A stretch of 64,000 nucleotides of DNA from a virus (Duplodnaviria; Heunggongvirae; Uroviricota; Caudoviricetes). The notes below the pieces were generated by a model. The model saw nothing but the letters and a program-made list of their open reading frames with translations. It was not told the DNA's origin and made no database searches. Every line of letters starts with the position of its first letter. The stretch's first letter is position 1. This document shows positions 4,860 through 63,998 of this stretch, one piece after another. Position numbers and translations under genes: made by a program. Where the stretch lies: positions 93,307 through 157,306 of the IMG/VR virus record IMGVR_UViG_3300025723_001543; one strand, given 5' to 3'.

Positions 4860-6470
4860 TTATGAATATAATACAGAGAAAAGATCAGTTTCTAGATTTA
4901 GGTTAAAATTGTTATCTGATATTATTAAGGGTTTGCCAAACATCATGTTACCTACAGGATGCATAACTTTTTTAACTACATCAACATATTTATCTAAAGA
5001 TTTTTCAACTTGTATTTCATATGAGTAATCTTGATAATAATAACTGTCCTGAATATATTTATCGGTGTTCAACAATCCTGTATTATCTGACCATCTTCCT
5101 TCTTCCATACCAACACCAGCAACATTTATTGTTAACTGAACTTCAGTATCTTGATTTCTTGGATTAGAGAATGTTAAGCTTTCTCCTTGTGTATTAAATC
5201 CGAATCCAGATGAAAGAAGTTTAACGTCGCCCACAGTTCCATTTGCAGCAGCCAATTCTGCAGTTATTACAGCATTGTTCCCCCATATTCCACCTTTGGA
5301 ATCGGTATACCCATATCCGGTAATCAATGGTTCTGTCACTGATACTTGTAAAGACCCGTTGTACTTTCTATCTCCAGAAGTAGTTGCATGTATTTCTGAT
5401 ATTGTTCCGATTGTTATATCATCAAATGTCAAAGCTTCCTGTAGAACAGAATTAACATTTGTATTATTTAAAACAGAACCATAATCTGCAGAAGATAGTA
5501 ATGTAGCAGCAGAGTCCGATAATAAATTGCTGTTTATACTAATGACAGAAGTATTGCTAATAGTTTTAATTTTAAAAGATGCACCACTTCCCATTGTTGC
5601 GGTTCTATATCCTATAGAAATATGTGAGTTAGCACGATATCCATATCCACCATCAACAATTTTAAAAGTAATATAACCAATATTTTTGCCATAATCTAGG
5701 AGAGCTTTTACATTAAATTGCAATCCCTTTGCTGAATCTGTATTTACTACAAGAACATCATTTATAGCATTATCTGCACCAGATGAATCCACTGTAGCAC
5801 TTCTAGCAGAACCAAGAACATAGGATGTGTTAGATAAAGTTGTAAACCCATCATATGTCAAATACTCACCAATTCCAAACTCATCTCCATTCTTTCCATA
5901 ATGCAAGTCTGTTATAAAAAGAATATAACAAATTTTATCACCAATGTACAATTCAACTGCTTCGTCTACATAAGCTATTGCACCAGTAGTAGTGCCAGTT
6001 ATAAATTTATTTAAATATGAAAAATGATTGGTACTATTTTTTGGTATAACTTCAATGTATTTTCTTTGATACCATTTACCACTTGAAGGTTTTAAAATAT
6101 CAATCTGAGGTAGATAAATTTCTATATTCTTGTTATAAAGCAATCTAAAAAGAAGCTTCATTCCTTCAGATGCACCTTTAGAACGATATACATCTAGTAT
6201 GTGTTTTTCAAGAAATCTTTTATCAGTAAGAATATTTTTTGGAATACCATCCATATATTTTGTCATAAAATATTTGACGTATTCATCGAGAGTTTGATCT
6301 ATGTCTCTATATTCACCAAGTCTTCTAGTTTTATATCCTACAGATGCCTCAGAGTCCATCCATTCGTAATATGCTTTTATAAATTGTATAAAATTTTCTC
6401 CTTCTTCTTTATAAAAAGAAGGGAATTGATTTTCTATTAAAGGAGCAATATTTTTTAAATCTGTAAACAT
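4860..6470 (-). CDS. 7: baseplate wedge protein, gp7-like (short form)
   Basis: KGASEGMKLLFRLLYNKNIEIY resembles remembered T4 gp7 C-terminal region (KGIEASYKFLFKVLYNEEVEIE). Position is immediately after gp6. Confidence 0.45.
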   Translation of the reverse strand: MFTDLKNIAPLIENQFPSFYKEEGENFIQFIKAYYEWMDSEASVGYKTRRLGEYRDIDQTLDEYVKYFMTKYMDGIPKNILTDKRFLEKHILDVYRSKGASEGMKLLFRLLYNKNIEIYLPQIDILKPSSGKWYQRKYIEVIPKNSTNHFSYLNKFITGTTTGAIAYVDEAVELYIGDKICYILFITDLHYGKNGDEFGIGEYLTYDGFTTLSNTSYVLGSARSATVDSSGADNAINDVLVVNTDSAKGLQFNVKALLDYGKNIGYITFKIVDGGYGYRANSHISIGYRTATMGSGASFKIKTISNTSVISINSNLLSDSAATLLSSADYGSVLNNTNVNSVLQEALTFDDITIGTISEIHATTSGDRKYNGSLQVSVTEPLITGYGYTDSKGGIWGNNAVITAELAAANGTVGDVKLLSSGFGFNTQGESLTFSNPRNQDTEVQLTINVAGVGMEEGRWSDNTGLLNTDKYIQDSYYYQDYSYEIQVEKSLDKYVDVVKKVMHPVGNMMFGKPLIISDNNFNLNLETDLFSVLYS

Positions 6471-23484: not shown

Positions 23485-23790
23485 CCTTTTAAAAAGTGAG
23501 CCCATTCTGTTCCAAGGCGGTGCTCATACCCGTGAAACTTAAGCCGCTAGGCGAGTCTCAATGAGTGCATTATCGTTAGCATCTAAACGTTGCTTTTAGT
23601 CTCTTCGTACCTTTACTACAACCCGTCGAACCTATTTCCAGCCCATCAAAGATACATTGGTGACAATATTAGAGACCTTTGCTCTTATCATCGGTACGGT
23701 CATGCGAGGACCAATGTATCCATGGTGGACTGGTCGGGTACTGCCCCCGAGTCCGAATTGTCTATTCCTTACGCCTCAACGACTTAAGCA
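23485..23790 (-). ncRNA. ssrA: circularly permuted (two-piece) tmRNA gene. Acceptor piece about 23723-23790 (T-arm, 3' acceptor strand CCAGUCC, ACCA). Intervening segment 23645-23722. Coding piece about 23485-23644 (5' GGGCUGG..., resume codon GCU at 23580-23578, tag ANDNALIETRLAA, stop UAA 23541-23539)
   Basis: Minus-strand GGGCUGGAAAUAGGUUCGACGGG matches the tmRNA 5' end (E. coli GGGGCUGAUUCUGGAUUCGACGGG). AAUUCGGACUCGGGGGCAGUACCCGACCAGUCCACCA matches the tmRNA 3' end (AAUUUCGGACGCGGGUUCAACUCCCGCCAGCUCCACCA) but lies UPSTREAM of the 5' strand. The 7-bp acceptor stem has a G3:U wobble. Tag reading frame ends ...LAA-UAA. Confidence 0.7.
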
Positions 23791-23794
23791 TCAT

Positions 23795-23824
23795 ATTTAT
23801 AACACAGCTATTATTATATGTCAA
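23795..23824 (-). promoter_or_regulatory. sigma70-like promoter TTGACA-N17-TATAAA(T) (also contains TATAAATA) driving the tmRNA precursor
   Basis: Revcomp of 23819-23824 is TTGACA. A 17-nt spacer precedes TATAAAT at 23802-23795. Confidence 0.55.
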
Positions 23825-23829
23825 GCAAC

Positions 23830-54823: not shown

Positions 54824-55317
54824 GAGACATTTTTATCATTAGTGACACTCATTTTGGTCATGAAAACATCTTGACTTTCACAGACGAGCATCGTAATGTT
54901 GTTCGTTCATTTGCAGATGTGGACGAAATGGATGCACTTATGATTGACAACTGGAACAAGACCGTCAAAGATAATGATATTGTTTATCATCTAGGTGATG
55001 TGTTCTTTGGTAAAGGATATCAAGTCTTGCCTTTTCTAAAGGGTCGTAAAAGATTGGTGTTAGGCAATCATGATAATCCTAAAAGCAATCATATCACGAA
55101 AAATTTTCAAAAAGTTATGTTACTGCGGTGGTTCCCTGAGTTTGATTGCGTTCTTACTCATATTCCTATGCATGAAAGTGGAATGACTAAAGTTAAATAC
55201 AATCTTCATGGGCACATTCATCAAAAAAAATCTCCTACAGAACGACATGTAAATTGTTGTGTTGAGGTTCGTGATTACACACCTATCGCAATCGAAGATA
55301 TCATGAAGGGTCTATAA
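54820..55317 (+). CDS. calcineurin-like metallophosphoesterase (phage Ser/Thr-phosphatase-like)
   Basis: Motifs DTHFGH, GDVFFG, GNHD, GHIHQ in canonical order. Confidence 0.75.
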   Translation: MRDIFIISDTHFGHENILTFTDEHRNVVRSFADVDEMDALMIDNWNKTVKDNDIVYHLGDVFFGKGYQVLPFLKGRKRLVLGNHDNPKSNHITKNFQKVMLLRWFPEFDCVLTHIPMHESGMTKVKYNLHGHIHQKKSPTERHVNCCVEVRDYTPIAIEDIMKGL

Positions 55318-55318
55318 A

Positions 55319-55711
55319 ATGACTAAACTTCCTGCACTTGTCTATAATCGTAACATGATAGTTCATGGGTCTGCTGAACCAATTCAAAACAATTATCATA
55401 ATGATGATTTTCATCGTGAACCACCAGTAGAAACCATCATTGATGCAGAAAATATCAAAGAAAAAGTTATGGACTATCTTGGTGCTGTATTGGCTAGATG
55501 TTGGTATGATAAGAAGCTTATGGCTGGTTTGGAATTAAATGCTCATAGGACACTTCGTCACTTGGGCATTCTTCTTCCTCCAGAGTTGGAAATCAAGTTT
55601 GAAAAGACAAATAAAGAACGTCCCAAGCTTCTCATCTATGAATGGAACAAGGAACGTACATTCAAACGCAAGGTATGCTATCTACAAATGATGATGATGG
55701 CTGGGAGGTAA
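55319..55711 (+). CDS. hypothetical early protein
   Basis: ORF, 130 aa. Confidence 0.3.
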   Translation: MTKLPALVYNRNMIVHGSAEPIQNNYHNDDFHREPPVETIIDAENIKEKVMDYLGAVLARCWYDKKLMAGLELNAHRTLRHLGILLPPELEIKFEKTNKERPKLLIYEWNKERTFKRKVCYLQMMMMAGR

Positions 55712-55713
55712 GA

Positions 55714-56046
55714 ATGACTGATGATGAAGCAGATATGTATTATGATCGTTGGTTAATTGCTAAGAATACAATTAAGCGACTTGAAGCTGGCATCATGGAA
55801 ATGAAGCAGACAATTGCTAATAGAGAAAATGAGATTGAACGTCTCACAAAAAAATGTGATATGCAAGCTAACATTCTTCGTCACTTGACACCAGATAAGT
55901 TTCCTGATACATTATTTATTAGTGGGGTTCTTGGTGAACGGGATTTAAACAATATGCCTCAGAAGCTTCTTGTTGTTCCTGCATATGGTGTTGACTTTAG
56001 CTATATCTATGAGCGTACAGAAAAAACAACAGGACCAGAGTGGTAA
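55714..56046 (+). CDS. hypothetical early protein (start moved to internal ATG with GGGAGG Shine-Dalgarno; track ORF 55642-56046)
   Basis: RBS GGGAGGT 5-7 nt before ATG 55714. The upstream part of the track ORF overlaps the previous gene. Confidence 0.35.
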   Translation: MTDDEADMYYDRWLIAKNTIKRLEAGIMEMKQTIANRENEIERLTKKCDMQANILRHLTPDKFPDTLFISGVLGERDLNNMPQKLLVVPAYGVDFSYIYERTEKTTGPEW

Positions 56047-56047
56047 G

Positions 56048-56365
56048 ATGGTAGGATACAAGTCAAAGAAACTACTAGCTGAAAGTAGAGAGAGTAATGT
56101 GAGATATTCATTGGTACGTTTGCATGATGGCGCTGGGGATTCTGGACCCATGTGCCAGATACTTGATCCAGAAAATTATCAATTTATCGAAGGTGAGAAC
56201 CGTCCCCGTATTGGGTGCGGTATTCGTGTTGGTTCTTTCTATGGGAGAACCTATGACTCACAAGACTGGTGGCAGACTAGCCCCGTATTAGAGATTCTTG
56301 AAGAGCGTGAGGACTATATGAAGTTCAGGACTCGCAATTCAGAATACGAGTGGAAGACTTTTTGA
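56048..56365 (+). CDS. hypothetical early protein (start at internal ATG 56048; track ORF 55970-56365)
   Basis: The previous gene stops at 56046, with this ATG 2 nt later. Confidence 0.3.
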   Translation: MVGYKSKKLLAESRESNVRYSLVRLHDGAGDSGPMCQILDPENYQFIEGENRPRIGCGIRVGSFYGRTYDSQDWWQTSPVLEILEEREDYMKFRTRNSEYEWKTF

Positions 56366-56366
56366 T

Positions 56367-56960
56367 ATGCCATTTAAACCAAATGAATTGCCTTCACTTG
56401 AAATTTTAAATGATTTATTTATATTAGATATTGAAAACGGCATTCTCTATTGGAAAGAACGTGATAGAAAATATTTTCCAAATCATAAAGCGCATGTAAC
56501 GTGGAATGCAAAATTAGCTAATAAAAAAGCTGGGTCTATCAAAGATAATTTTAAAAAAAATGGTACAAATAAACAATACCACATTATTATGTTTAAAAAC
56601 AAAATGATTTATTCACATAGAGTAATTTTTAAAATATATTATGGATATGAACCAATATATATTGATCATATTAATGGAAATGGTTTAGATAATAGACCTA
56701 TAAATTTAAGATCAGTAACACAAATTGAAAATAATAGAAACATTTCTATTTCAAGAAAAAATAAAAGTGGTGTTGTTGGTGTGTGGTTTGATTCAAGACG
56801 AAAAAAATGGAGAGCCCAATTAATAACTAATAAAAAATGTTATTGGAAATTTTTTGATACATTTGAAGAAGCAGTTGATTATAGAATATTTTTAGAAGAA
56901 ACACATGGGTTTTCTGCGACAGGAAAAAAAACACATGAAATTACAAAAGAAGTAGCGTGA
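56367..56960 (+). CDS. HNH-AP2 homing endonuclease
   Basis: HNH motif HRVIFKIYYGYEPIYIDHINGNGLDNRPINLRSVTQIENN followed by AP2 DNA-binding domain SGVVGVWFDSRRKKWRAQLITNKKCYWKFFDTFEEAVDYR. Markedly more AT-rich than flanking genes. Confidence 0.8.
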   Translation: MPFKPNELPSLEILNDLFILDIENGILYWKERDRKYFPNHKAHVTWNAKLANKKAGSIKDNFKKNGTNKQYHIIMFKNKMIYSHRVIFKIYYGYEPIYIDHINGNGLDNRPINLRSVTQIENNRNISISRKNKSGVVGVWFDSRRKKWRAQLITNKKCYWKFFDTFEEAVDYRIFLEETHGFSATGKKTHEITKEVA

Positions 56961-56977
56961 TAAACTAGGAGTTTAAA

Positions 56978-57355
56978 ATGACAACATGGAAAGTTTCAAC
57001 AAAGTATAAGAAGTCTATCACTGAAAAACAGTTCTGGACAAAAGATGGCAAAACCATTATCTATAGCATTGGTTGGCGTTGGGGATATGCTCGCTATGCT
57101 GAGAAGCCAGAGATTGATGAAGATGATGAAGAAGTAAATATCTATGAACTTGGTGATGTGATTGATCAAGAGCAAGAAGATGGCTGTTGGTCTGATTGGG
57201 AATTTCCTGATGACATGGATGAAGAAGAACAAGAACGTCTTCAAGAAGCATATGAAGAAGAATATGATGAAGGTCTTGAAGGTGAAGGTTGGGTTTGCGA
57301 TGATACAGAAACATGGTTTTCTGGTCCACTAGAAATTGAGGAAGAAACAGAATGA
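56978..57355 (+). CDS. acidic hypothetical protein
   Basis: 125 aa, D/E-rich C-terminal half. Confidence 0.3.
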   Translation: MTTWKVSTKYKKSITEKQFWTKDGKTIIYSIGWRWGYARYAEKPEIDEDDEEVNIYELGDVIDQEQEDGCWSDWEFPDDMDEEEQERLQEAYEEEYDEGLEGEGWVCDDTETWFSGPLEIEEETE

Positions 57356-62066: not shown

Positions 62067-62663
62067 ATGACAGAAGTACCAGAAGTACCAGAATTAGCAA
62101 AAGAAATTCGTAAAGAAAAAGTTAAAAAAGTAAGTATTCATTATATTGATAATAAGAAATTTTATACAGCTATTATTCAATATAAAAGTGATTGTGCAGA
62201 AGCTGATGAAAAGGGTGAAGAACATCCAAGGATTCCTCCTTATATTGGCGAATGTCTTTATAAAATTGCAACTCGTCTTTCTCTAAAACCAAACTTCATC
62301 AGTTATACGTATCGTGATGAAATGATTTCAGATGGACTAGAGAACTGTGTTAATTATTTAAATAATTTTAATCCTGAAAAATCAACAAATCCATTTGCAT
62401 ATTTTACGCAGATTATTTGGTATGCTTTCTTAAGGCGTATTGACAAAGAGAAGAAACATCTGTATATCAAACAGAAGACTTTGGAGAATTTTTACTTTGA
62501 AGGTATGCTGGCTGAACAATCTATAGGTGATGAAAAAAATGTGACTGTCAATTTGGATAATGATTATATGAAAAATCTTGTCAAGTCATACGATAAAAAA
62601 CAATCAGAGAAAGCAACAAAGCGTAAAGATAAAAAAATTGGAGTGGAGAAGTTTTATGAATAA
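62067..62663 (+). CDS. 55: late-transcription sigma factor gp55
   Basis: YRDEMISDGLENCVNYLNNFNPEKSTNPFAYFTQIIWYAFLRRIDKEKK matches T4 gp55 ([49 protein letters not shown]). Confidence 0.88.
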   Translation: MTEVPEVPELAKEIRKEKVKKVSIHYIDNKKFYTAIIQYKSDCAEADEKGEEHPRIPPYIGECLYKIATRLSLKPNFISYTYRDEMISDGLENCVNYLNNFNPEKSTNPFAYFTQIIWYAFLRRIDKEKKHLYIKQKTLENFYFEGMLAEQSIGDEKNVTVNLDNDYMKNLVKSYDKKQSEKATKRKDKKIGVEKFYE

Positions 62664-62926
62664 TGATAATATACATATGGTTCCACCAAGTGTGGTAGAT
62701 ATTGTTGAAAAAATTAATTCGCCTATCGCTCATCCAAATGAGAAAATGAATTATCTCGTAAGGCTTGAGACCATTCGTGACTATTGTATCTCATCAATCA
62801 ATAAGCATAATAGTAATACTCAAAAGAATAATGTTTTTAAAGATACCCGTCCTAAAACAAATTATTCACGAATTGGTAGAAACAACGTATGAATCATTAG
62901 TTATATAAAATGAAAGGAGACTCAGT

Positions 62927-63998
62927 GTGACACGTATTGCTCTTATAACTGATACCCACTTTTGGAGTTAAAAATGACTCCCCTGTTATGCTTAACAACA
63001 TGAAGGATTTTCTTGATGAAATCTTTTTTCCGTATATTGATAGACACTCTATCAAATCTATTGTCCATCTTGGTGATCTTGTTGATCGCCGCAAATATAT
63101 TAATATTGCCACTGCTAAGAGATTGAGAGAAGATTTCCTTGAAAAAATTGCTTCAAGGGATTTAGACTTTCATATCATTGCTGGCAATCATGATACTTAC
63201 TATAAGAATACGAACAATGTGAATTCATTGAAAGAACTTGTAGTGCATCAATATCCTTCATTTAAAGTGTGGGATAACACACCAGTATCATGGTCATTCA
63301 ATAATACTAATATTTTATTGACACCATGGATTTGTGATGAGAACCGTGAAGAATCATTAAGGATTATTAATGAAACACGTTGCCCAATTCTTTTTGGCCA
63401 TTTGGAACTTGCAGGTTTCCCAATGTTTGTTGGTGCTCCTCCGTCTCATGGTGACGACCCTAATATCTTCAATCGTTTTGATACTGTATGTAGTGGGCAT
63501 TACCATCATCGTAGTAGCAGAGGAAATATTCATTATCTTGGTTCGCCGTGTGAATTTACTTGGGCAGACTACAATGATAAAAAAGGTTTTCATGTATTTG
63601 ACACAGAAACGAGAGAACTAGAATTTATTGAAAACTCATATACAATGTTTCAAAAAATTTGGTATGATGATATAACTCTTGGAAATGAACCAGAAAAAAT
63701 TGATCTTGATTTTTATGCAGGAAGGCATATCAAAGTTATTATTAAAAACAGAATTGATCCTTATAAGTTTGATATGTTCATTAATCAACTTGAAAAGCGT
63801 GGGGTTCATGACTTGCAGGTAGTTGAAGACCATTTAAATTTGTATCTAGAAGAAGATTCTGATATAATAAACGAAGCAGAAGACACAATGACTATTCTTA
63901 GAAAGTATCTTACTAGCATGAGTGCAAATACAGATATGAAAGACAGAGTAGAAAAAATAGTTAGTGACCTTTATATGAAAGCCCAAACTATAGAGTGA
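62927..63998 (+). CDS. 47: recombination endonuclease subunit gp47 (Mre11/SbcD-like) interrupted by a +1 frameshift: N-terminal 14 codons with motif I in one frame, remainder in frame of ORF 62988-63998
   Basis: AAGGAG Shine-Dalgarno then GTG 62927 encodes MTRIALITDTHFWS-stop. The +1 frame continues (T)FGVKNDSPVMLNN...IVHLGDLVDRRK...IIAGNHDTYY (motifs II and III). Joined, ITDTHFGVKNDSPV parallels T4 gp47 LGDWHLGVKADDEW. Confidence 0.7.

Follow-up and report, generated by a model that had tools for sequence, protein, structure and literature searches.

A split gp47 gene in an uncultured T4-like phage

The DNA analyzed here, hereafter called the window, is a 64,000-nucleotide stretch (positions 93,307 to 157,306) of the uncultured Caudoviricetes record IMGVR_UViG_3300025723_001543. 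Near its 3′ end lies a gene identified by sequence comparison as gp47 of a T4-like phage, a member of the Mre11/SbcD/gp47 nuclease family, whose reading frame is interrupted by one additional T. Its neighbors are uvsY, the UvsW helicase gene and a gene for a gp55-like sigma factor. In contig L081, 100% identical to the window in their overlap, the gene order is uvsY, uvsW, the gp55-like gene, a small open reading frame (ORF), gp47 and a gene for a 569-amino acid SMC_N/AAA_23 protein; this last product, the Rad50/SbcC-like gp46 partner, is intact in the same population.

A preliminary description of this locus had proposed that a Shine-Dalgarno (SD) sequence and a GTG codon open a short frame that a one-T deletion would join to the gp47 body. 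Gene, site and repair were all recovered on re-reading the sequence. A 7-nucleotide (nt) spacer separates the SD from GTG 62927, from which frame 0 encodes MTRIALITDTHFWS followed by a stop (that is, V/M-TRIALITDTHFWS), ending at TAA 62969-62971. The TTTT run occupies positions 62960-62963 and the remainder of gp47 (62964-63998) is in the +1 frame. The latter contains a TAA at 62946-62948, is open from 62949 and reads ...F GVKNDSPVMLNN... to the TGA at 63996-63998. Consistent with this layout, a tblastn comparison of the repaired protein with the window covers residues 12-356 only in a single frame. No second copy of gp47 was found in the 64-kilobase (kb) window.

Removal of one T yields a 356-amino acid protein that matches Pfam Metallophos (PF00149, E=1.3e-11) from residue 3 to residue 194. 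A profile search of PDB aligned it from position 2 with the solved SbcD structure 7dog_A (E=7e-7), whose segment KIIHTADWHLG pairs with motif I; a single-sequence phmmer search of PDB gave no match, so the profile search was needed. Motif I becomes contiguous only after a +1 shift, D9-T-H11 lying in frame 0 and G13 in the +1 frame, and D9, H11 and G13 are invariant across 28 homologs. Other invariant columns in this set are HLGD (47-50), GNHD (86-89), H158 and GHYHH (190-194). By these criteria the predicted product is an Mre11/SbcD/gp47 family member in which motif I is complete only across the shift.

The first ATG of the +1 frame (62988) opens a 336-amino acid ORF, and this ORF is what public gene callers report as the gene. 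It lacks the first ~23 positions of the Metallophos profile and the D9, H11, G13 region of the repaired protein, in agreement with the earlier remark that the annotated start falls on an internal Met beyond motif I. This codon (Met21 of the repaired protein) is probably not the real gp47 start. A practical consequence is that gene callers assign to phages with the frameshifted form an N-terminally truncated "SbcD" devoid of motif I. Coordinates of the features are collected in Table 1.

Table 1. Features in and around the split gp47 gene (positions are those of the window).
Feature	Position	Strand	Basis or remark
Small hypothetical ORF upstream, 78 amino acids	62656..62892	+	gene calls in L081-L091, same population
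Relic of the ancestral gp47 start, ATG AAT CAT TAG, dead	62889..62900	+	alignment with L091/L092, L093-95, L001, L002
41-nt leader not present in the nearest intact relatives	62894..62934	+	DNA alignment
Strong SD, AAAGGAG	62913..62919	+	7 nt before GTG
gp47 segment 1, frame 0, codons 1-12, M-TRIALITDTHF; motif I (D9, H11)	62927..62962	+	conserved with synonymous variation in 12/12 frameshifted lineages
Putative shift site CAC UUU UGG (E, P and A sites before the shift)	62957..62965	+	12/12 frameshifted lineages read CAY TTT T GGN GTN
Frame-0 continuation TGG AGT TAA; unshifted ribosomes would end after a 14-amino acid peptide	62963..62971	+	sequence reading
gp47 segment 2, +1 frame, GGA (G13) to TGA 63996-63998; motifs II (HLGD), III (GNHD), IV, V (GHYHH)	62964..63998	+	
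Internal ATG (Met21), gene callers' 336-amino acid start	62988..62990	+	without SD; start not conserved in other frameshifted lineages

The break is fixed in the phage population

The exact 336-amino acid product occurs on 18 contigs from five ENA assemblies, four JGI samples and one Logan/SRA run, the longest contig measuring 186 kb. Ten of these contigs were fetched, and all ten are identical over 151 nt around the site, including TTTT and the mini-ORF upstream of it. Elsewhere they differ from the window (at 62119, 62540, 62727, 62755, 63419 and 63968) and define at least five haplotypes, with all four allele combinations present at sites 62755 and 63419. Some ENA or Logan assemblies may re-use JGI reads; the haplotype differences show that several are independent. 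Two of the polymorphisms fall in the gp47 body and both are synonymous, which is partly built in, the contigs having been found by look-up of the exact 336-amino acid protein. The 90% cluster, drawn from ~15 billion proteins, contains as the only other 336-amino acid variant a singleton with one V to A change, and no intact 356-amino acid "MTR..." allele.

The break is no artefact and has reached fixation in a natural population. Because the same TTTT is found in ten contigs from different samples and assemblers, representing at least five haplotypes, the homopolymer sequencing error envisaged in the preliminary description does not account for it.

The same break is conserved in distant lineages

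JGI metagenomes and IMG/VR were scanned with the pattern GAY NNN CAY TTTT GGN GTN MRN AAY GA; such scans detect only TTTT-type breaks with that flank, so that other forms may exist and prevalence figures are rough. Matches were obtained at 22 loci in the JGI metagenomes and 8 in IMG/VR. Twelve of the 22 were discarded as chance matches without gp47 homology; the other ten, and all eight from IMG/VR, are gp47 genes. In most of these the tblastn alignment to the repaired window protein begins at residue 12, in a frame different from that of the N-terminal peptide. De-duplication left 11 further frameshifted lineages (L098, L102, L103, L104, L105, L107, L108, L109, L111, L118 and L123), 38-55% identical in amino acid sequence to the window gene. 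One was recovered from three samples (L103, L115 and L125, 99.65-99.94% identical). The comparison of orthologs suggested earlier thus places the break at the same codon in 11 other gp47 lineages. Two narrower queries, the exact 33-mer of the mini-ORF and a frameshift pattern requiring Lys, gave no matches in IMG/VR. The 334-amino acid homolog P0113, considered as a possible truncated gene, was rejected, since its gene is intact (CAT TGG GGA) and owes the short product to a wrongly called TTG start.

The frameshifted genes share a common architecture. The start codon lies 21 or 24 nt upstream of the Asp codon and opens a mini-ORF of 11-12 codons with the consensus M-x-(K/R)-[IVL]-[AC]-x-[IL]-x-D-[TV]-H-F; the junction consensus is CAY TTT T GGN GTN [CGN/AAA] AAY GAY. 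The run consists of four T residues in 11 lineages and five in L098, and a frame-0 stop follows 3-6 codons past TTT in all 12 lineages, window included. Before the T, frame 0 retains D-x-H-F with variable third positions (GAT/GAC, ACC/ACA/ACG/ACT/GTG, CAC/CAT); after it, the +1 frame retains G-V-R/K-N-D with all four third bases used for Gly and Val. For the +1 body, the frameshifted lineages do not share any ATG, GTG or TTG behind an SD, the first candidates lying at +114 in L108, +105 in L109 and +54 in L118. The contiguity of both frames with synonymous variation, the lack of a start for the body and the invariance of D9, H11 and G13 together argue that the protein must be read across the additional T.

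Constraint on these genes is strong. The ratio of nonsynonymous to synonymous divergence (dN/dS) is 0.063 for L104-L111 (synonymous divergence, dS, 0.47), 0.060 for L104-L123 (dS 1.56), 0.067 for L111-L123 (dS 1.41) and 0.049 for L107-L109 (dS 1.11), values that describe an entirely post-break path only if the break is shared by descent. They indicate constraint equal to or stronger than that on intact genes (0.11-0.17). Judged from these substitution patterns, the frameshifted genes are functional and under purifying selection on both sides of the break. An inactivating mutation, the second option of the preliminary description, is strongly disfavored by the maintenance of the same break in diverged lineages at dN/dS 0.05-0.07; the third option, a programmed +1 frameshift, is the one that this conservation supports.

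The window gene is a recombinant

The closest uncultured relatives of the window gene are intact genes of 355 amino acids: P0001 (97% amino acid identity), P0122 and P0123 (~93%), and L001 and L002 (81-83%). P0122 reads DTHFGVKND, the very sequence proposed earlier for the repaired window gene. In intact relatives the TGA of the small upstream ORF overlaps the gp47 ATG (ATGA junction), and alignment shows gp47 to begin with ATGAA(A/G)ATTGC in L091/L092, L093-95, L001 and L002. Window DNA is identical to that of L091 up to ...CGTATGAA, the ancestral start overlapping the stop of the small ORF. Past this junction it has, relative to L091, 41 additional nt with their own SD and GTG, then ~30 strongly diverged nt, then the additional T. 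Differences between the two gp47 genes number 54 in the first 420 nt and 2 in the last 650 nt. The DNA flanking the patch is 99.6-100% identical to L091, and dS is 0.013 in uvsW and 0 in gp55.

The source of the 5′ module can be traced to the frameshifted lineages. Between 62906 and TTTT the window and L108 are ~90% identical, although their gp47 bodies share only 55% amino acid identity. Within this segment, the leader sequence ATG AAA GGA GAC TCA GTG TGA (62910-62930; MKGDSV and stop) matches the end of the gene that precedes gp47 in L108. Directly 3′ of TTTTGG, similarity changes from L108 to L091. From this mosaic we infer that the window gene gained its frameshift-type 5′ module by recombination, with a crossover at the shift site.

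Comparison of the window gene with intact relatives gives dN/dS values of 0.11-0.17, with no relaxation, and the changes on the window branch in segment 2 are nine synonymous and no nonsynonymous. These ratios cannot date the break because most window-specific changes sit in the imported patch. The chimera is young; that the window lineage is viable is judged from its abundance in many samples and from the behavior of the module elsewhere.

A second mosaic patch was observed between window positions 55294-57355 and L091 4050-6051 (86.6% identity with 27 gap openings, against 97.5-97.8% in the flanks). In L091 this patch contains small ORFs and an HNH_3 endonuclease gene (5105-5677).

Distribution and probable spread of the frameshifted form

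In a neighbor-joining tree of 92 gp47 proteins, itself approximate, frameshifted genes occur in at least seven separate places among intact genes, and one internally diverged frameshifted clade is formed by L102, L123, L104 and L111. Independently of the tree, each frameshifted gene is nearer to intact relatives than to other frameshifted genes (for the window, 97% identity to L091 and 55% to L108).

The 5′ ends show a different pattern. Among pairs whose bodies are 45-60% identical, the 28-nt leaders are 76±8% identical when both genes are frameshifted versus 53±7% when both are intact; for the 36-nt N-terminal coding stretch of the same pairs, the figures are 77% versus 67%. L102 and L123, with bodies 60% identical, have leaders that are 96% identical. 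Together with the chimeric window gene, these figures point to a 5′ cassette that has spread through recombination within the conserved DNA of motif I; independent origins are possible for the less similar deep lineages L103 and L107.

Nothing near-identical at the DNA level was found in GenBank phages, a blastn search with the 96-nt module returning chance matches only. Searched by tblastn with three repaired frameshifted proteins, cultured phages gave relatives with at most 47% identity; the matches listed align from residue 1-3 and appear intact, and none among them is frameshifted. For the window gp47 itself, the closest cultured relatives among the matches listed belong to Stenotrophomonas phage DLP_6 (46%), and to Pelagibacter phage Mosig and the Methylophilales Melnitz phages (~41%).

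Proposed decoding at UUU_U

Taken together, the above results make it quite probable that gp47 is produced in these phages by an obligatory +1 ribosomal frameshift at UUU_U. Translation would begin at GTG 62927 behind the strong SD. With tRNA-Phe in the P site on UUU 62960-62962 and UGG (Trp) in the empty A site, the tRNA would slip one base 3′ onto the identical UUU at 62961-62963, re-pairing perfectly. The A-site codon would thereby turn from UGG to GGA (Gly13), yielding a product that reads ...DTHF-GVKND... and for which the predicted junction tryptic peptide is IALITDTHFGVK. Ribosomes that do not slip would stop two codons further on and release the 14-amino acid peptide. Frequent initiation at the strong SD presumably makes up for a shift that is sub-stoichiometric. 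It is more speculative that ribosomes queuing so near the start (11-12 codons) might promote the shift.

That the slip is ribosomal, and takes place on UUU_U, is suggested by the arrangement of the site. The P-site UUU is the likely location because it is the only position that keeps D-x-H and permits tRNA re-pairing. In all 12 frameshifted lineages UUU_U is invariant, so that tRNA-Phe can re-pair perfectly in the +1 frame, and the A-site codon is always UGG, the sole Trp codon. No version of the break with CUU_U (Leu) was found in IMG/VR. According to the Atkins review (PMC5009743), UUU_Ynn is shift-prone in bacteria without a neighboring stop, and a stimulator is not found at all +1 sites, those of the UUU_Y type lacking one.

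The start region of the frameshifted genes is also distinctive. An SD match of at least 6 nt is found in 10 of the 12, versus 7 of 81 intact genes (Fisher p=1.4e-7, indicative only, the lineages being possibly non-independent). In most intact genes the SD is weak or missing, and the start codon overlaps the end of the preceding ORF as ATGA, GTGA or TTGA. The choice of CAC for the His codon does not differ significantly between frameshifted genes and intact TTT genes (p=0.14). In window ORFs of at least 120 codons, TTT is rarer before codons starting with T (146/217, 67%) than elsewhere (613/752, 82%; Fisher p=1.5e-5). The bias would fit a risk that UUU_U poses to the reading frame; general avoidance of homopolymers could also produce it.

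A hairpin of 5 base-pairs can form just past the window site (62964-62981, GGAGU-UAAAAAUG-ACUCC), but its sequence also occurs in intact L091 and it is not conserved in other frameshifted lineages. The 66-nt stretch containing it has a minimum free energy of -16.5 (z -3.5). In the same vicinity, GGAG and ATG 62974 resemble an initiation site, with a 9-codon ORF following in the third frame.

No suppressor or unusual tRNA was found in the window or at the frameshifted loci. ARAGORN detected no tRNA gene in the window; near the frameshifted loci the only ones found were tRNA-Thr and tRNA-Gly(UCC) in L115. These two genes, tRNA-Thr(UGU) and tRNA-Gly(UCC), lie at 728-879 on the minus strand, ~3 kb from the frameshifted gp47 of the L103/L115 lineage. 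A phage tRNA-Gly could help decode the +1-frame GGN codon, though this lineage uses GGT.

Weighing the alternatives

Several observations weigh against an obligatory programmed shift. Across the 12 frameshifted lineages the A site holds neither a stop nor a demonstrably rare codon. No SD-like element lies within ~10 nt 5′ of the site, the only conserved one being the initiation SD ~40 nt upstream. Nor do the lineages share an RNA structure at this position: RNAalifold gives an empty consensus, and the z-scores of individual sequences (-3.5 to +1.3) scatter around 0. In Yersinia pseudotuberculosis, mutation of a UUU-UGG site did not abolish the YopN-TyeA hybrid (PMC3789692). With 8 IMG/VR contigs, the frameshifted form is rare beside the intact TTT pattern, for which there are at least 120. 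An unbroken frame prevails among the orthologs, those with 97%, 93% and 81-83% identity included, and 80 IMG/VR relatives align in one piece from residue 1-3; the shift is therefore not needed for gp47 function as such. Lastly, the post-event record of the window lineage is thin (two synonymous polymorphisms and one nonsynonymous singleton) because the chimera is recent. The preliminary description had held that intact orthologs would argue against a programmed event. They are indeed the majority, the 97% relative among them, yet a minority of lineages conserve the frameshift, which makes this argument misleading.

The strongest competitor leaves the decoding mechanism as outlined above and differs in evolutionary meaning. 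A T inserted into the common CAY TTT GGN creates UUU_U, after which slippage of a few percent and a stronger SD would suffice to make the indel leaky and tolerated, a nearly neutral "compensatory" frameshift with no adaptive or regulatory role. We consider this possible, if somewhat doubtful. Intact relatives read CAT TTT GGT or CAY TGG GGN at the site, and 40 of 81 intact genes have CAY TTT GGN, one insertion away from the frameshifted state. Few genes have the frameshifted form, they share no dedicated stimulator, and their strong SD resembles compensation; moreover, a "corrective" or "savior" class of frameshifting is described in the Atkins review (PMC5009743). However, a single T should readily be lost again, and still the state has lasted over dS >1. 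The sharing of the 5′ module beyond body divergence (leader 76% vs 53%) and its movement into the otherwise intact-type window gene suggest that it is at least not disfavored.

A highly improbable alternative confines inactivation to the window lineage, a recent recombinant in which gp47 would be a young pseudogene or a nuclease-dead scaffold made from Met21. Its nearest relatives are intact, the 99.6-100% identity of the flanks to L091 implies that the event is recent, and the synonymous changes of the window branch, mostly within the imported patch, may predate it. Against this, the break arrived with a module maintained under selection elsewhere, and is fixed in at least five haplotypes from many samples with no intact "MTR" allele found. 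Furthermore, the 345-codon frame is still open in a genome of 31-37% GC, gp46 is intact, Met21 has no SD, and the family shows no variation at the motif I residues.

Correction at the RNA level, a most improbable explanation, would have RNA polymerase slip on the run of four T and drop one U in some transcripts, which would then be translated normally. The site is a homopolymer and the outcome for the frame would be equal. Documented cases of productive transcriptional slippage involve much longer runs, ~7-9 or more identical bases; the gp47 run has only four T, or five in L098. Slippage sites are treated as a class apart in the Atkins review (PMC5009743). Finally, although T runs are well known for length errors of one base, the chance of an artefact of sequencing or assembly is practically nil, the site being the same in all ten contigs fetched from JGI, ENA/MEGAHIT and Logan, with polymorphisms elsewhere, and recurring in 11 other lineages from other metagenomes, one of them (L103/L115/L125) in three samples.

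Other genes of the window phage

Two auxiliary-looking genes directly follow gp46 in L081, in DNA just beyond the 3′ end of the window. One encodes a peptide deformylase (PF01327; 5728-6231), the other a PRA-PH/MazG-like pyrophosphohydrolase (PF01503; 6686-7011). In the window itself, the minus strand at 23495-23828 carries a permuted two-piece transfer-messenger RNA (tmRNA) gene of alphaproteobacterial type (Rfam RF01849, 94.3 bits, E=2e-24; RF04321, 88.1 bits), with the tag peptide ANDNALIETRLAA followed by a stop as predicted by ARAGORN. A phage-encoded tmRNA of this type hints at an alphaproteobacterial host.

Relation to known recoding systems

The window gene resembles the T4 gp47/Mre11/SbcD family in its five phosphoesterase motifs, its Metallophos domain, its alignment to SbcD 7dog_A and its synteny with uvsY, uvsW, gp55 and gp46/Rad50; it differs from the cultured-phage homologs among the matches listed, which appear intact, in being split at motif I. 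Recoding itself has precedents in phages. Listeria phage PSA uses +1 shifts in capsid and tail genes, and tail assembly chaperones use a G/GT -1 shift. Both concern structural or assembly genes and give two products with a shared N-terminus, whereas gp47 is a recombination nuclease with one useful product.

As far as its class is concerned, gp47 fits, by the features of its site, programmed +1 ribosomal frameshifting of the UUU_Y type and neither the prfB-like type nor transcriptional slippage. Spontaneous and utilized +1 shifting at UUU_Y in bacteria was reported by Fu & Parker 1994 and Schwartz & Curran 1997, both cited through PMC5009743. UUU-UGG was proposed as the site for the Yersinia YopN-TyeA +1 product (Ferracci 2004, via PMC3789692), and this hexanucleotide is identical to the gp47 site. 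In these cases, as in the window gene, P-site tRNA-Phe would move from UUU to UUU with no adjacent stop needed. YopN-TyeA is, however, an optional fusion at the 3′ end of a gene; the gp47 shift would be obligatory for the only functional product and would occur 12 codons from the start, inside a catalytic motif, in lineages 38-55% identical in amino acid sequence.

The release factor 2 gene, prfB, likewise relies on an obligatory +1 slip of the P-site tRNA onto UUU to give a full-length protein, and a minority of species have UUU_U in place of CUU_U (PMC5009743). The prfB site is CUU_UGA with an SD-like stimulator, and prfB autoregulates; in gp47 the A site holds the sense codon UGG, GAT ACC CAC precedes the shift codon, and no autoregulatory logic is obvious. 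Assignment to the prfB family was rejected, as there is no A-site stop and no SD-like sequence 3 nt upstream of the shift codon. Closer in some respects are the "corrective" or "savior" indels exemplified by G-run mutants of herpesvirus thymidine kinase (PMC5009743), where, as in gp47, a homopolymer indel is rescued by low-level slippage and the unshifted product is useless. Those mutants are recent and drug-selected, whereas the gp47 state has been kept over dS >1, in a conserved 5′ cassette that moves together with its strong SD.

A literature search for frameshifting in phage gp47, SbcD or Mre11 found no report. Neither Mre11 nor SbcD occurs in the searched text of the Atkins review (PMC5009743), which gives no nuclease case, and the PRFect survey has no nuclease among its phage genes with programmed ribosomal frameshifting.

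Implications

Why the frameshifted form should persist is a matter for speculation. Conceivably, though this seems unlikely, SD, mini-ORF and UUU_UGG act together as an adaptive regulatory device, transferred horizontally among T4-like phages through recombination in the conserved motif I DNA, that ties synthesis of the phage Mre11 to the translational state of the host and so sets the timing or dose of end-resection while infection proceeds. Candidate signals would be, for example, charged tRNA-Trp, modification of tRNA-Phe, or traffic and collisions among ribosomes that have entered at a very strong start 12 codons before.

Should the +1 shift be confirmed, gp47 would be, as far as we could find, the first case of programmed +1 frameshifting in a phage DNA recombination/repair enzyme, and would join a small number of natural +1 sites of bacterial type that work on UUU_U alone while the A site holds a sense codon. 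Its compact cassette of ~60 nt lends itself to the study of sense-codon +1 shifting near a start codon. Natural experiments would be at hand in 12 diverged frameshifted versions and in close intact alleles at 97% amino acid identity, and the natural chimera in the window would show that the 5′ cassette suffices in a foreign gene body.

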